The notes beneath the pieces were generated by a model. It searched no databases. It was not told the DNA's origin and saw only the letters and a list, made by a program, of their open reading frames with translations. DNA of 63,941 nucleotides, counting the filler. It is 8 parts of 8 records of this genome, joined end to end, with 100 filler letters (N's around TTAATTAATTAA, not from the genome) between each part and the next. Parts side by side here need not be neighbours in the genome. Positions count along the whole stretch, not along the records: positions 40,008 to 49,926 come from DRR723986_19050; 7 more parts are not named here. The stretch is one strand, 5' to 3'. How positions within the stretch are numbered: position 1 is the first letter of the stretch; each line of letters opens with the position of its first letter. Below are positions 4,810-43,682 of the stretch, in pieces. A program made the translations under genes and the position numbers.

Positions 4810-5970
4810 TCAGAATTTCCAACGCGCCCCGATCACGGCAACGTCAATATCCGCGACTGGAACCGATGCTCCCGTTAGCTCGTAGTTTCGATAACCTGCG
4901 TATAGTTCAGTGTTATAACGATCCCATTTCTGAACAATACCAAGGCCATAGGATTTGGACTGAGATCCGATACCGGCAAGGTCATCCCCTTTGAACAGAT
5001 CAAAAGACACAGCCGTTTCGCCCATATCAATCCAGCGTCGTTTCAAGCCCAGTTTGAGATAGGTGTAATCGGCACCGGTATCTTGTTGCCGTCCCGTTGC
5101 AAATGCCAGGTTCAGGCCGGTCGCCTTGTGAAAGACCGCAATGGATGACGCAACTGTTGAGCGATCGGAACCCGCCCAAGCATAGCCAATCCGGCCAGAA
5201 ACTTTGAACTGATCAAGATCCCGGTCATAACGAAGCGCCAGATCGTAGTAATCCCGGTCATCCCCATGGCGCAGCACCTCTTTCCCGGCAGAGATTGCAA
5301 GGCCAAAGCCGTTGTATTGGGCGCTGTCATAACGCAGCCGAAACCGACGCGCGCCATCGAAGTTTCGGAATGCGCCATTGATGGTGGTTCCAGATCCCGC
5401 GCCGCTTGCGGTATGAAATTCGGCACTGCCTGCCAACGCATTGATACTAGAATAATGCACAACGCTGGTCCCGGAAAAGTCCGTTTCTGCAACGCCATCT
5501 GTTGCGGTGCTTCCCTGACCAAAAGACAAGGCGCCATAGGCGGGCGTGCTGTACACCACCTCCAATTTTCGCAACTCGGTACGCCGCCATTTCAGGTCCA
5601 GGTCATTGTCGTCAAGGGTTGCCGCCGCCGATCCCGAAAACCCCAGCCCGCTTTCAAAATGGAACTTCAGCCTGTGCCCATTGGCCAGTTCGGTCTGGTG
5701 GATGATGCCGATCCGGCTGTTCGAATTGTCATTGTCGGTAAGGTAGGTGTCATTGCTTTGACCATCGTCGACATGAAAAATCCCGAAGTTAAGTTGGCCA
5801 TAAAATTCGAATGCGGGCTGCTCGGCTTCTCCGGCGCGGGCCAAACCGGCCGAGGCCAGAAAGGCAAAAGCTGTTGCCACCCCAAGGCCGCGCAACCGCA
5901 GCTTGGGCCTGGCTTCAATTGGATGCTGACCTATGGCAGCGAGCGCGTTGTGATCTGGTATCTGCTGCAT
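4810..5970 (-). CDS. Outer-membrane porin
   Basis: AGGAG SD, signal peptide, FYGQLN...NSRIG N-terminal porin motif, C-terminal GARWKF. Confidence 0.85.
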   Translation of the reverse strand: MQQIPDHNALAAIGQHPIEARPKLRLRGLGVATAFAFLASAGLARAGEAEQPAFEFYGQLNFGIFHVDDGQSNDTYLTDNDNSNSRIGIIHQTELANGHRLKFHFESGLGFSGSAAATLDDNDLDLKWRRTELRKLEVVYSTPAYGALSFGQGSTATDGVAETDFSGTSVVHYSSINALAGSAEFHTASGAGSGTTINGAFRNFDGARRFRLRYDSAQYNGFGLAISAGKEVLRHGDDRDYYDLALRYDRDLDQFKVSGRIGYAWAGSDRSTVASSIAVFHKATGLNLAFATGRQQDTGADYTYLKLGLKRRWIDMGETAVSFDLFKGDDLAGIGSQSKSYGLGIVQKWDRYNTELYAGYRNYELTGASVPVADIDVAVIGARWKF

Positions 5971-6109: not shown

Positions 6110-6370
6110 ATCGTTGAGTTCTCTTAAGAAAATCCAGCGCTGCGTATTGCTGTTGCACGGTAGCTTGCCTGCCTTTTTGCCGCAGAGAACCTACCGTCGG
6201 CCTGATATGCAGATGAATTTGAAACCGCGCTTTCAATTTCAAAAACACCTTTATATCAAACAGAAAGGCCGCGCTTCATTTCGAAATTCACCATATTTAC
6301 ATTAGCCTTTGGCCACACAAAGCCTCCAAATCTGACCAGAAGCCGGGCAACCTATCTTCCCGTCAAAGCA

Positions 6371-6408
6371 TGGCAGGATCTGCCCAAACCTTGGCCGAAA
6401 AGGCCAAT
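6371..6408 (+). promoter_or_regulatory. Putative AraC-type tandem site 4
   Basis: TGGCAG (6371) and TGGCCG (6392), 21-bp spacing. Proximal half is TGGCCG-N4-GGCCAAT. Confidence 0.5.
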
Positions 6409-6831
6409 ATTTGCGGCGCTGCACCTCCTACATCTGGCTCATCGATCAACCGAGAGATGCCAATTGGCCGATGCCCGATTTCCCTAAGGCAAAGGCTTTG
6501 CATCTCTCCACACGGAGAAGCTGGAATGACCCATCCGGACCACATGACCTGCCCCGTCTGGCGCACTGCGGCACCGTCCACTCGCCGCAATGCATGCCGC
6601 GGTTCCGGGCGCGTTCCAGCTTCTCCGCCAGTGATGTCCCGCGCGCCGTTCAGGTCAGGCATACGCCGCCCCAATGAAAGGCTGTTTGCCATCGCAACAA
6701 CCCTCGTCATTTGGCCTGTCTTGGCCGCGTTGGTGGAAACCTACCATCAAGACAAAGCAGCCAGACAACACCTTTCCCCAAGCCACTTTCGGACCCTCCC
6801 ATCCGTCCCGACCCCAAAAGTGGCAAACTCC

Positions 6832-40817: not shown

Positions 40818-41068
40818 TCCGTTTCCTTTCGGGAAATTTTGCTTGCGGTTAGGTAAGTTGGAGACGGCGGGTTCACCGCAGGGAGCGCCGCAATTGCTTA
40901 GGACACGTTCCAGATGATGGGACATTGTCAAAGCCGGGCGAAAATCCAGGGAATTGGCTCTGTATACCAATTCAGAGCCGGTTTAAAACAGACAGGCACG
41001 ATCACCTGGGGCGACCGTGCCTGCAAACGAAGCGAATAACTCAAAAGCTGCGTGTCACAAAAAGAAGC

Positions 41069-42613
41069 TTAACCAACCTGGCGGTCGGCAGTTGCGAGTT
41101 TGTACTCGGCAACCATCTCTTTTTCGTGTTTAAGTGTCTCGAGAATCCAGCTCCACAGTTCTTCGTAGGGCACGATTTCAGTTGGATCAACGAGGTGTTT
41201 ATAGCGTTTAAGTTTGGAAATCCACTGGCGTCCCAGGCGCTCTACGCGTCGGTAGCTCAGGTCTTCCTTGGCTACAACCATCAGCATGCGAATAAACACC
41301 TGTGTACGGTAGGTTTCATTCTTATACAGATAACGATGGCAGTAGTTGCTCAATGAATCCAGGCGATCCATGATCTTGTCAATCTCACCACGACGAATGT
41401 AGGTGATGAGCTGGAGGATCATGAGGCTCGTATTCCAACCAGCTTTATCCGTCTGCATAATCGGCGTTTCATTTAACAAACGCTCTACGCGCAGGCTGAT
41501 AACCTTTTCGGGCGTGAATTCATTGCGAAAAGCTGCCAGAGCGTAGTAGCCTTCAAACAGCTTCCAGTGCTCTTTAAGGTGATCCGGCTGATTATTAAAC
41601 TTAGGATTTTTGCGTACTACCTGCAGGCAGTTGCCGGCTTCCTGATAATCTCCCGAGTGCATGCACAGAACAAAACGATTGTGCTGGAAGTGGAACCAGT
41701 TAAGGCTGCCTTCGGTGCAATAACGTGCTGCAATTTGTGCGTTAAATTTAGCATTGACGTAGTCGTGCATTTCGCGAAATGCTGCAAATTTATCGCCGTA
41801 AAACGCAACGTAATACCCGGGGTAGGCCAAATGTGGCCTGCCGCGCAGATACTCAATCGCTTCATCGCAGTTTTTGACCACATCTTCCAATGCGCCGTCT
41901 AGCTGCAACATTACAGTTTTGGCACGGAAGTATGATAGTGCGATATTGAGGGTGTCATGTTTTTTGTAAAGGTCCGTCAGCTTGGTAAAAAGCGACTTGA
42001 TTTTACGCTGTTCCTGTTTGGAGATGCTTGCGGATTTAACATAACTAATGCCAATTTGCTGGCAGTGGGCCATGGCTTCATCCTCTGCCACGACCAAACG
42101 GCGCTGTTCGGCGGCTGCGGCAAGCGCTTCCTCAAACTGGCGGCGTTCGCCCAGAGTGTGGTACAGATCGCGCAGTAGCTGTGCGGCTTCAAACGCGACG
42201 TTGGGCATTGAATGATAAATCGCCTTTTCAAGAACGTGTCTTGCCAACTGTTCGGCACTTTTCTTGGCGCCGAGCCTTAGCAAGAGTTTAACCAGAAAAA
42301 GCTTGCGATTACATTCGACCATCGCTGTAAAAATTTCTGACTGCGCTTCTTTTGTCGGGCTAATCAACAGCAGCTTTGTGTACAGCGTTTCCTTTAGCTG
42401 CCACTTGAGACGGCGGTACTTTTCGCTGATGGTCGCTTCACCATAAACGCGCTCAGCGGCCTCCATATCGGTCTCAAACTCGTTGTCCTTGATTCCCTGA
42501 TACATCTGATACGGAAGAAATTGCTGGTTTTCCTCACTCTCAAAGTCAAGACTTGACTCTGGAACGAACTTTTCTTCCGTAACAATATTCACCAACTCCT
42601 TAAGCTTTTTCAT
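41069..42613 (-). CDS. Hypothetical 514-aa protein: putative N-terminal HTH plus TPR-like helical repeats
   Basis: Long ORF with GGAG upstream, no TM or signal peptide, amphipathic Ala/Leu/Tyr-rich helical pattern (e.g. GDYQEAGNCL, HDYVNAK). Function is inferred. Confidence 0.85.
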   Translation of the reverse strand: MKKLKELVNIVTEEKFVPESSLDFESEENQQFLPYQMYQGIKDNEFETDMEAAERVYGEATISEKYRRLKWQLKETLYTKLLLISPTKEAQSEIFTAMVECNRKLFLVKLLLRLGAKKSAEQLARHVLEKAIYHSMPNVAFEAAQLLRDLYHTLGERRQFEEALAAAAEQRRLVVAEDEAMAHCQQIGISYVKSASISKQEQRKIKSLFTKLTDLYKKHDTLNIALSYFRAKTVMLQLDGALEDVVKNCDEAIEYLRGRPHLAYPGYYVAFYGDKFAAFREMHDYVNAKFNAQIAARYCTEGSLNWFHFQHNRFVLCMHSGDYQEAGNCLQVVRKNPKFNNQPDHLKEHWKLFEGYYALAAFRNEFTPEKVISLRVERLLNETPIMQTDKAGWNTSLMILQLITYIRRGEIDKIMDRLDSLSNYCHRYLYKNETYRTQVFIRMLMVVAKEDLSYRRVERLGRQWISKLKRYKHLVDPTEIVPYEELWSWILETLKHEKEMVAEYKLATADRQVG

Positions 42614-42708
42614 CCATTTAGCTCCAGAATTTCAATTTTTCCACGTTCTTGGTTAATAGTAGCCAGAAATACGACGTAACAAAATCACCCACCGCCGTGG
42701 GCCTCTTC

Positions 42709-42729
42709 CAAAGCTAAAAAGTAGCTTTG
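42709..42729. promoter_or_regulatory. Palindrome CAAAGCTA-N5-TAGCTTTG (back-to-back TAnnTTTG boxes or operator)
   Basis: Perfect 8-bp inverted repeat between the divergent genes. Each arm matches the Bacteroidota -7 consensus. Confidence 0.6.
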
Positions 42730-42782
42730 TCATCAACGAAATTTATATGTCTTCCTGTTTAACATTGTTCGGGGAACACTTC

Positions 42783-42989
42783 ATGCATGAACTGCTGTGT
42801 GTCTTGCTATATCTAGCCTTAATTTCAAGTCCGGATGAATTCTATCAAGCAGAAATTTATCAGATTGAAAGCGATAATCAGGCCCAAGTCGATGCCGTCG
42901 AAAACAATCAGACCTTGTACAATCAGGTAATAATTGATTATGACGATGACGCCGAGTATGTCACGATTTGGGACTTCACATCGAATTAA
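42783..42989 (+). CDS. Small acidic peptide (68 aa) with hydrophobic N-terminus
   Basis: GGGGAA SD before ATG, LLCVLLYLALIS core, 14 D/E and no K/R, upstream -7 box and downstream hairpin. Confidence 0.7.
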   Translation: MHELLCVLLYLALISSPDEFYQAEIYQIESDNQAQVDAVENNQTLYNQVIIDYDDDAEYVTIWDFTSN

Positions 42990-43017
42990 TCTTGTATTGA
43001 TCGATTAGAGTGAAATT

Positions 43018-43070
43018 GCAACAGGCCAGAAGCCATCGATTTACACGATTGAGGGTTTCTAGTCTGTTGT
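43018..43070 (+). terminator. 3' hairpin of the peptide transcript
   Basis: GCAACAGGCCAGAAGCC/GGTTTCTAGTCTGTTGT stem whose G-U pairs form only on the + strand. Confidence 0.55.
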
Positions 43071-43084
43071 TGATTCAAATATAA

Positions 43085-43378
43085 ATAGTCCACTGCACTG
43101 CTTGTTGGCTGATTGACTTGCACACACTCCAGGCTCTGCAAAAGACCATAGAAAATGGAGTAAAGGCAAAACAGTTCAATGGTGATGACTGCCGGCTGTT
43201 ACGGCTTACGTTTGCCTCCGATGTGCCGTGAATACATCCAGAATTACCTGTTACAGAGCCTATCCCAGCCCCGATAATCCTGGTTCGCGCCGTATCCACA
43301 TGACAGATGGCGACCGGTTCTACTTGCCTAACCAGCTTTGTGCACAAAACACAGATTCAACTACATTTTCCGCAACAA
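43085..43378 (-). ncRNA. Candidate structured non-coding RNA (ends approximate)
   Basis: Downstream of a minus-strand TTG-N20-TACATTTG promoter. Nested stems AGGCTCTGTAA/TTGCAGAGCCT and GGAGGCAAA/TTTGCCTTT with minus-strand G-U pairs. No convincing ORF. Confidence 0.35.
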
Positions 43379-43385
43379 TTGCAAG

Positions 43386-43416
43386 CAAATGTAAGAACAT
43401 TATCAAATCGTTACAA
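43386..43416 (-). promoter_or_regulatory. Bacteroidota-type housekeeping promoter
   Basis: -33 TTG (43416-43414), 20-nt spacer, -7 TACATTTG (43393-43386). Confidence 0.5.
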
Positions 43417-43682
43417 GACATTTTTCGAAAACGGTGACATTTTTTTTGGTTTTTCGTTCCGAACAGCATCTGCACCACACTATTCCAACAATTGTCCCGC
43501 CGCTGCACAGAAAGAAACACAAGTCTTTAAAAATCAACCACTTAGAGAAAAAGCAGACAGCTACAGTTCAATAAGAAGTGTCAAATTACAATTATTTTCT
43601 ACCGCAAAAGCATCTGGAGTGACACATGCCAAGAACGGGCAACTATTACATTTTCGTAACATGAAATCAACATAAAGCTCCA

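Follow-up and report, generated by a model that had tools for sequence, protein, structure and literature searches.

This work concerns a divergent pair of genes in a 63,941-nucleotide (nt) stretch of DNA, called the window here, which joins eight parts of eight records of one genome with 100 N's between the parts. At positions 41069 to 43070, in the part from record DRR723986_19050, a gene for a 514-amino-acid (aa) protein and a gene for a 68-aa protein lie head-to-head. Both genes are real, and the locus is one copy of a two-gene cassette that occurs many times over in related Bacteroidota genomes. Linkage between the two gene families is tight, the families co-diverge, and the large and the small protein probably form a cognate binding pair. 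A preliminary description of this DNA had read the locus as a receptor-peptide cassette resembling the RRNPP family; the fold, the linkage and the paralogue family stand in favour of that interpretation, whereas the winged helix-turn-helix (HTH), the palindromic operator and the general acidity of the peptide had to be given up.

Two linked and co-diverging gene families

A profile of the small protein has 9, 13, and 7 matches in three genomes related to the window organism (G001, G002, and G003, respectively), and all 29 adjoin a match to the large-protein family. Twenty-seven of them lie upstream and divergent, and the other two, an orthologous pair, lie downstream on the same strand. The association was also tested from the small gene outward, by scanning metagenome contigs with a different small-protein clade (MQIILSILLYLN...). 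Among the 13 loci found, a divergent large gene lies about 490 nt upstream in 10, the contig ends within 600 nt in 2, and in one (L074) the small gene is an orphan, the next 3 kb containing no large gene; hence, 10 of the 11 testable metagenome loci are linked. An all-against-all clustering of flanking open reading frames (ORFs) found the small ORF to be the only widely recurring neighbour. The other neighbours vary by locus, being a CHAT-domain protein, a LexA-like S24 peptidase, an integrase or a TonB-type barrel. At one locus (L023:4586-6991) the large gene is followed by a same-strand CHAT-domain protein, and at another (L048:4083-4847, likewise L049 and L051) by a same-strand LexA-like protein with HTH_3 and peptidase S24 domains; these followers may be lineage-specific outputs or chance neighbours.

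The reverse link was classified for 53 large-family genes. A small gene with a strong hidden Markov model (HMM) match stands divergent to 19 of them, and for 3 more it lies downstream or is shared with a tandem neighbour. Seven have a divergent ORF with a weak HMM match to the leader, 3 were assigned a small gene by a leader rule (one of them doubtful), and for 21 no small gene was found, although by eye two of these 21 do bear a leader-type ORF (L006, 42 aa; L051, 72 aa). Two orthologous paralogues lacking a leader-type small gene (L026, about 4810-5218; L038, about 2287-2559) have instead a divergent ORF of 90 to 135 aa without a hydrophobic leader and with the tail Y-V-E-I-(F/I)-E-Y, which may be an alternative partner. 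At L022 and L031 we noted ORFs with family-like C-termini and no leader, perhaps decayed copies.

The preliminary description had proposed co-variation of receptor and peptide as a check, and the two families do co-diverge: over 20 pairs the distances within the two families correlate with a Mantel r of 0.58, a value that none of 5000 permutations reached, and the nearest neighbour agrees in 13 of the 20. The small protein evolves faster, with 37% divergence between the window and its closest relative L002 against 13% for the large protein. Paralogue pairs of G001 have orthologous pairs in G003, and the expansion is therefore old and maintained. The pairing is kept across lineages whose large proteins are only about 25% identical.

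A solenoid protein and its small partner

The 514-aa protein has no match in Pfam or NCBIfam and nothing meaningful in PADLOC or PHROGs, and a word-indexed search returned just two close relatives. A HMMER scan of 1.84 billion cluster representatives gave 2111 large-family proteins at an E value of ≤0.001 (1671 at ≤1e-10 and 620 at ≤1e-30), corresponding to about 2,100 family clusters at 50% identity. Among the 150 matches listed, most are 490 to 545 aa long and match end to end, and a few are shorter, down to 410 aa; no longer fused forms of the large protein were found, which is weak evidence. The consensus C-terminus is EIIPYExLW. A paralogue family of about 500 aa ending in an EI(I/V)PYE.LW-like motif, which the preliminary description had mentioned, thus exists, and its members do carry divergent small ORFs with a hydrophobic start.

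At an E value of ≤1e-5 the large family has 16, 18, and 12 matches in G001, G002, and G003 (about 11, 14, and 9 of them near full-length, judged from the match ranges) and 6 in a Saprospiraceae genome. The distribution over the phylum is patchy, with matches at ≤1e-10 in 16 of 301 evenly sampled genomes, in each of which at most five candidates were scored. The named carriers are Candidatus Kapaibacterium (Bacteroidota), Saprospiraceae, Phaeodactylibacter, and one Hymenobacter plasmid, and the ESM Atlas returned only unnamed clusters, mostly from Bacteroidota, for the whole large protein. The closest relative, L002, is labelled "uncultured Hyphomicrobiales", and its genome has the same paralogous cassette set as a Candidatus Kapaibacterium genome; the taxon label conflicts with the gene content, and the bin may be mis-assigned.

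In tblastn searches the large family had no match in 50,697 phage records and one, from Hymenobacter, in 72,556 plasmid records. This copy (L001) is a distant member with 23% identity on the 141-kb plasmid NZ_CP053909 of Hymenobacter sp. BRD128 (62156-64678). Its large gene lies 22 bp upstream of a tyrosine recombinase gene and near a TraM-recognition-domain gene, and no leader-type small ORF was found at this plasmid copy. Two metatranscriptome contigs of 266 and 224 nt, from two marine libraries, are identical to parts of the window's large gene (41302-41567 and 42200-42423), and one sponge metagenome contig is likewise identical to part of it. These contigs hint at a marine origin of the organism, or of a very close relative, and perhaps at transcription of the large gene, with DNA carry-over as another possible source. 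None of the contigs from the RNA libraries covers the small gene or the intergenic region, an absence that is uninformative.

The structure of the large protein was predicted with AlphaFold2 (AF2). A first fold from 3 sequences was poor (predicted local distance difference test, pLDDT, of 61.7), and its Foldseek search was uninformative. The model built from 140 relatives has a pLDDT of 91.9 and a predicted template modelling score of 0.88, and DSSP assigns only helix and no strand to it. Helices at residues 2-13, 33-42, 49-57, and 64-81 are followed by a repeat solenoid over residues ~93-470 and a long last helix, and the protein has no signal peptide. The model thus supports a tetratricopeptide repeat (TPR) solenoid of cytoplasmic type that follows a small helical domain at the N-terminus. 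Among the PDB sequences, consensus TPR proteins are matched by profile positions 249-333 with an E value of 1.9e-8, so the TPR-like helices of the preliminary description are borne out by both model and profile. Two computable findings would have spoken against that description, namely homologues without adjacent small ORFs and a predicted fold with neither an HTH nor a TPR groove; neither was observed.

Resemblance to known peptide receptors lies in the fold. The profile search of PDB sequences up to an E value of 10 returned generic TPR proteins only and no RRNPP protein, and among 93 family members Pfam gave sporadic generic TPR matches only (TPR_2 in 6 of 93). The Foldseek search of the PDB with the good model also found only generic TPR proteins, with E values of about 1e-3 and template modelling scores of 0.2 to 0.4. 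RRNPP receptors emerged only with the VIA-align structural comparison, where they are among the best structural matches; the scores include those of MalT domain III (18.9), the Rap protein of phage phi105 with its peptide (18.8), RapI (18.3), the Rap protein of pLS20 (18.0), NprR-NprX (16.5), LGN (16.5), AimR (15.4 and 14.7), RapH (15.1), and PlcR (12.2). The margin is modest, with LGN reaching up to 17.0 and rank 50 standing at 11.2 to 14.8; the match therefore indicates a Rap/NprR-like kind of TPR solenoid and does not imply homology. The preliminary description had foreseen an HTH with a TPR superhelix; a TPR solenoid is predicted, and no HTH family matched. Co-folding of the 514-aa and 68-aa proteins scored 0.00 in two ESMFold2 runs made without the family alignments, a result that speaks neither for nor against binding.

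The N-terminal domain may be a DNA-binding or partner-binding module. Its last helix (residues 64-81) is basic, with a net charge of +4, and bears a nearly invariant K70; this helix could bind DNA or an acidic small partner. No HTH family matched in 41 N-terminal segments or 93 full-length large proteins, a profile of the domain found chance-level matches only among PDB sequences, and the ESM Atlas search with residues 1-92 (best score 0.80) was not informative. The preliminary description had seen an OmpR/SARP-type winged HTH in the segment TDMEAAERVYGEATISEKYRRLKWQLKETL. We rejected this candidate, as neither Trans_reg_C nor BTAD matches there, and because the model has no beta strand, and hence no wing, the OmpR/SARP type is ruled out.

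The window's small protein has a hydrophobic N-terminus, 14 acidic residues (D or E), no K or R, and the C-terminal end DYDDDAEYVTIWDFTSN, as had been described. Its ORF is a real coding gene, since purifying selection goes beyond chance: the window and L002 differ at 35.8 of 40.5 synonymous sites and at 37.2 of 163.5 non-synonymous sites, and in the orthologous pair L024 and L016 the ratio of non-synonymous to synonymous substitution rates (dN/dS) is 0.047. The small-family HMM matches the window copy with an E value of 5e-27. A collection of 5.8 billion proteins holds 40 relatives of the 68-aa protein, all 68 to 74 aa long, of which six are named, each "hypothetical protein".

The family plan begins with an N-terminus like M-E/Q/D-x-L-L-x-I-L-L-Y-L-x-V-I-x-S-P-G, continues with Y-Y-x-x-E-I and a variable middle rich in Q, N, D, and E, and ends with a hydrophobic strand closed by D and a hypervariable tail. 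The uncharged, hydrophobic leader, ending in S/T-P-G, is the most conserved part, with L8, L9, Y10, and L11 in at least 90% of the alignment rows and S16 and P17 invariant. Over 59 distinct members the median length of the apolar core is 13 residues (range, 9 to 19), and P-G/N/D usually comes next; no member has K or R before the core, and position 2-3 is usually E, D, or Q. Lengths run from 41 to 74 aa and net charge from -16 to +2, with a median of -6. The acidic, K/R-free character is not a general trait and belongs to just 22 of the 59.

Column entropy of the small protein peaks after the conserved D64, and the C-terminal tail differs for each paralogue within one genome, which is what orthogonal receptor-ligand pairs would need. 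Members of 41 to 45 aa (L006, L007, L014, L018, and L043; Saprospiraceae-type loci) consist of the leader and the C-terminal strand with its tail only. Two small ORFs, each divergent and upstream of a large gene, have the leader followed by tandem units containing D-P-(N/A)-G, four of them in L052 (12125-12298 region) and seven in L053 (about 6337-6540), and look like multi-copy peptide precursors. Upstream of one further large gene (L046:448-2240) stand three tandem leader-type small genes, all with an I-D-R-x-E-D-like ending; single small genes with the same ending occur at L047, L050, and L051. The window clade is more uniform, with a constant length of 67 to 71 aa and conserved hydrophobic residues spaced 3 to 4 apart (I25, I28, I36, I39, V49, and Y53). 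The small protein thus has a precursor-like build, with a leader, a dispensable middle, and a paralogue-specific C-terminus.

Layout and expression signals of the locus

An ORF scan of the window places the 514-aa ORF on the minus strand (41069..42613) head-to-head with a small ORF on the plus strand ending at 42989. From its first ATG (42747..42989) the small ORF would encode 80 aa and from the ATG at 42783 it encodes 68 aa. The longer form was rejected, as its upstream residues are not conserved in the relatives L002, L003, and L004, whose large proteins are 87%, 87%, and 63% identical to the window copy. Because these relatives keep the frame only from MHELLCVLL on, we place the start at 42783, leaving an intergenic gap of 169 bp; the preliminary description had given the same layout and start. 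The features of the locus are as follows.

40992..41024, minus strand: terminator-like hairpin 3' of the large gene (15-pair stem, then a T-rich tail)
41069..42613, minus strand: large-protein gene, member of an uncharacterised family of about 500 aa (ORF; no Pfam or NCBIfam match)
41204..42337, minus strand: TPR-like solenoid, residues 93-470, putative ligand-binding sensor
42368..42613, minus strand: N-terminal helical domain, residues 1-82 (AF2 secondary structure and conservation)
42614..42782: divergent control region, 169 bp
42676..42683, minus strand: TTTGTTAC motif, candidate promoter or regulatory element, ~70 nt before the large-gene ATG
42709..42729: palindrome CAAAGCTA-N5-TAGCTTTG, 8+8
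42771..42776, plus strand: Shine-Dalgarno (SD)-like GGGGAA, 6 nt before the small-gene ATG
42783..42989, plus strand: gene for the small acidic protein, 68 aa, of a family of 41 to 74 aa (conserved in L002, L003, and L004)
42783..42833, plus strand: leader-like N-terminus (MHELLCVLLYLALISSP), with a 13-residue apolar core and no basic residue, ending in S-P
42957..42986, plus strand: C-terminal motif (YVTIWDFTSN), hydrophobic strand, D, and hypervariable tail, the proposed specificity element
43019..43069, plus strand: small-gene 3' hairpin, probable terminator (arms 43019-43040 and 43048-43069)

The palindrome that had been described as shared by the two genes is present in the window, but as a shared conserved operator it was rejected, not being conserved in the 87%-identical orthologues: in L002 and L003 just the arm on the small-gene side is kept. 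Read outward, each arm gives TAGCTTTG, which we take to fit the Bacteroidota -7 promoter box TAnnTTTG. Because only one arm is conserved, the palindrome is better read as back-to-back promoter boxes in one genome. Six of the 27 intergenic regions listed have an exact TAnnTTTG 50 to 66 nt ahead of the ATG of the small gene. On the side of the large gene, TTTGTTAC stands about 70 nt before the ATG in the window, where it is the single match, as well as in L002 and L004. Its 7-base core TTTGTTA is found in the 300 nt preceding 13 of 50 family genes, where 0.033 occurrences per 300 nt would be expected. Just upstream of TTTGTTAC, in the presumed 5' leader of the large gene, a G+C-rich hairpin with a T-rich tract (42687-42702, minus strand) may be an attenuator or a chance occurrence; for the whole leader, the advantage in folding over its shuffles is modest (z score, -1.86).

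The SD site and 3' hairpin that the preliminary description had assigned to the small gene are both there. The window has a purine-rich GGGGAA at the SD position, where the orthologues carry GGAG, and an SD-like 4-mer is present at -17 to -5 in 15 of 23 small ORFs. The 3' hairpin folds at -30.8 kcal/mol (z score, -4.39), and none of 200 shuffles folds as well. L002 has a different hairpin with a U run at the same position (z score, -4.15). With an SD-like site, a promoter-like box, and a terminator hairpin (the latter in the window and L002), the small gene appears to have independent expression signals.

The cassette occurs once in the window. The genes around it are of ordinary, unrelated kinds and encode a PLD-type enzyme, a HAD hydrolase, a sulfatase (its gene broken by a run of N), a small membrane protein, a pyridoxal-phosphate-dependent decarboxylase, a DinB-family protein, a multihaem cytochrome, and a formylglycine-generating-enzyme-type protein. 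Paired N runs break genes at several sites of the window (the sulfatase, ~39.9-40.0 kb), and some neighbouring ORFs are incomplete. Between the small-gene terminator and the decarboxylase gene, two non-coding blocks (43338-43469 and 43604-43663) align to L002 with 76% identity over 133 nt and 77% over 60 nt, in a spacer that is otherwise not alignable. Rfam matched tRNA only in the window and nothing at these two blocks, which could be a small RNA, a further small ORF, or a control element.

A candidate sensor-ligand pair and its alternatives

In the explanation we favour, the large protein would be a cytoplasmic sensor, with a basic helical N-terminal domain and a TPR solenoid, and the divergent small gene would encode the sensor's own small-protein ligand. 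The small protein would be made as a precursor, with the uncharged hydrophobic N-terminus serving as the leader for its export or its insertion into the membrane. The C-terminal unit of the small protein (hydrophobic strand, Asp, and variable tail), probably after processing, would be bound in the concave face of the TPR solenoid. Binding would switch what the N-terminal domain controls, in all likelihood transcription, both at the shared divergent promoter region and at unlinked targets. The overall logic would be that of an RRNPP peptide-receptor pair such as Rgg/SHP or Rap/Phr, placed in a Gram-negative phylum and presuming re-entry of the peptide. We advance the full version, with a precursor, leader export, a C-terminal ligand in the TPR groove, and an output switch, tentatively, as a possibility short of probable. 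That this would amount to RRNPP-type cell-to-cell signalling in Bacteroidota, independent of the Firmicutes systems or very anciently diverged from them, seems to us rather doubtful.

The cassette is best read, by analogy, as working like RRNPP systems, and not as a sequence member of them. It shares with RRNPP(A) systems a predicted TPR-type solenoid like that of the peptide-binding receptors and an adjacent small gene resembling a propeptide gene. The effector part of those receptors is an XRE-type HTH or the three-helix bundle of Rap, whereas here helices 33-42, 49-57, and 64-81 occupy this place without an HTH match; those systems belong to Bacillota and mobile elements and the present family to Bacteroidota. 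Fold, paralogue number, and propeptide tricks are common to the cassette and to Rap/Phr of Bacillus and its phages and plasmids, but sequence similarity is not detectable, and the large protein has about 135 extra N-terminal residues, with Rap alignments starting at residues 136 to 189 of the model. The phr gene follows its receptor gene in the same orientation, Phr carries a Sec signal whose n-region is basic, and Rap lacks a DNA-binding domain and acts on response regulators. To our knowledge, Rap/Phr has been described for Bacillota only.

The divergent order seen here is that of Rgg/SHP and PrgX/PrgQ, in which a cytoplasmic repeat-domain receptor stands beside a divergent gene whose product is a short hydrophobic peptide. 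The XRE-type HTH of Rgg and PrgX, which Pfam recognises, is absent from the 41 N-terminal domains and 93 full large proteins searched, and SHP precursors are shorter, with a basic N-terminus. MalT, the top structural match, is a sugar-sensing protein with an ATPase domain and a C-terminal LuxR-type HTH; the large protein, at only 514 aa and all-helical, has no match to an NTPase or a LuxR-type HTH of this STAND kind. SARP/AfsR proteins have a similar general plan, a DNA-binding domain with TPR-like helices, but their winged HTH (Trans_reg_C) and BTAD have no counterpart in the family matches or in the strand-free model. The tandem C-terminal units of L052 and L053 and the tandem genes of L046 resemble features of RRNPPA propeptides, for which PMC11343458 and PMC9765709 describe multiple pheromone copies in one propeptide and more than one propeptide gene for a receptor. 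Peptide receptors in the cytoplasm with a propeptide gene beside their own appear as a hallmark of Firmicutes and their phages in PMC10075063, PMC9765709, PMC11343458, and PMC12998947, and RRNPP_detector is described in PMC10075063 as run on complete Firmicutes genomes only. Our full-text literature search found no comparable Bacteroidota system; it covered main texts, and the supplements of papers might list non-Firmicutes candidates.

Several observations weigh against an exported ligand of this kind. The flanking-gene comparison found no transporter or peptidase linked to the cassette, and the RRNPP(A) receptors Rap, Rgg, NprR, PlcR, PrgX, and AimR share no detectable sequence similarity with the large protein. 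Because it has no basic n-region in any of the 59 members and usually an acidic residue or Q at position 2-3, the leader is unlike Sec signal peptides, and its conservation at the sequence level speaks for a specific partner more than for a general route of export. The helix-like periodicity of the middle in the window clade fits a folded partner protein, a diderm envelope makes export and re-entry costly, and about 21 of the 53 large-family genes have no detectable small gene.

Much of this would suit a partner switch inside the cell, in which the small protein stays in the producing cell, soluble or held in the inner membrane by its N-terminus, and binds the TPR protein as an anti-regulator, tether, or adaptor, its amount, set by promoter or proteolysis, determining activity. 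Linkage and co-divergence would be the same, the large protein is all-helical and without a signal peptide, and no transporter is linked. The constant 67 to 71 aa and the hydrophobic spacing of the window clade resemble those of a folded mini-protein, the leader could be conserved as a protein-binding epitope, and an acidic partner (net charge to -16) would face the basic helix (+4). Yet a membrane anchor would usually be longer than the median apolar core of 13 residues, the middle is dispensable in the members of 41 to 45 aa, and acidity is not general, with net charges up to +2, while tandem C-terminal units and three tandem genes are more typical of processed precursors. We regard such a switch as a serious contender, albeit on the unlikely side.

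We consider it improbable that the small protein is a toxin, a bacteriocin-like product, or a defence effector with the TPR protein as its chaperone, immunity factor, or trigger. Multi-copy cassettes of patchy distribution (16 of 301 genomes), standing alone among unrelated neighbours, would fit such a system, as would the Hymenobacter plasmid copy beside an integrase and the CHAT-domain protein following the L023 copy. However, that plasmid copy lacks the small gene and is the one match in all plasmid records, the phage records hold none, and neither PADLOC nor PHROGs has a match; in addition, the paralogues are old and orthologous between genomes rather than recently mobile, and the small proteins are acidic or neutral and not cationic amphipathic. 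Mere adjacency, with an independent small gene sharing the promoter region of the large gene, could account for the orphan L074 and the roughly 21 of 53 large genes without a small gene but is already very unlikely, given that 29 of 29 small genes and 10 of 11 testable metagenome loci adjoin a large gene and that the pair is kept across lineages with large proteins about 25% identical and the families co-diverge.

A large unannotated family of about 2,100 clusters thus shows, in a diderm phylum, a receptor and propeptide-like logic. Should the signal pass between cells, communication by peptides would extend to a prominent phylum of gut, soil, and marine communities, with ready-made orthogonal receptor-ligand pairs, and some genomes may run a dozen or more orthogonal signalling channels. 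The uncharged, sequence-conserved leader would then point to a dedicated export and processing route, and Gram-positive-type peptide signalling in a Gram-negative phylum would, if true, be a notable finding. If the pair acts only inside the cell, it would still be a new and widespread class of sensor/small-protein switch. Either way, two protein families gain a testable function, and the cognate and non-cognate paralogues within the same genome provide built-in specificity controls.

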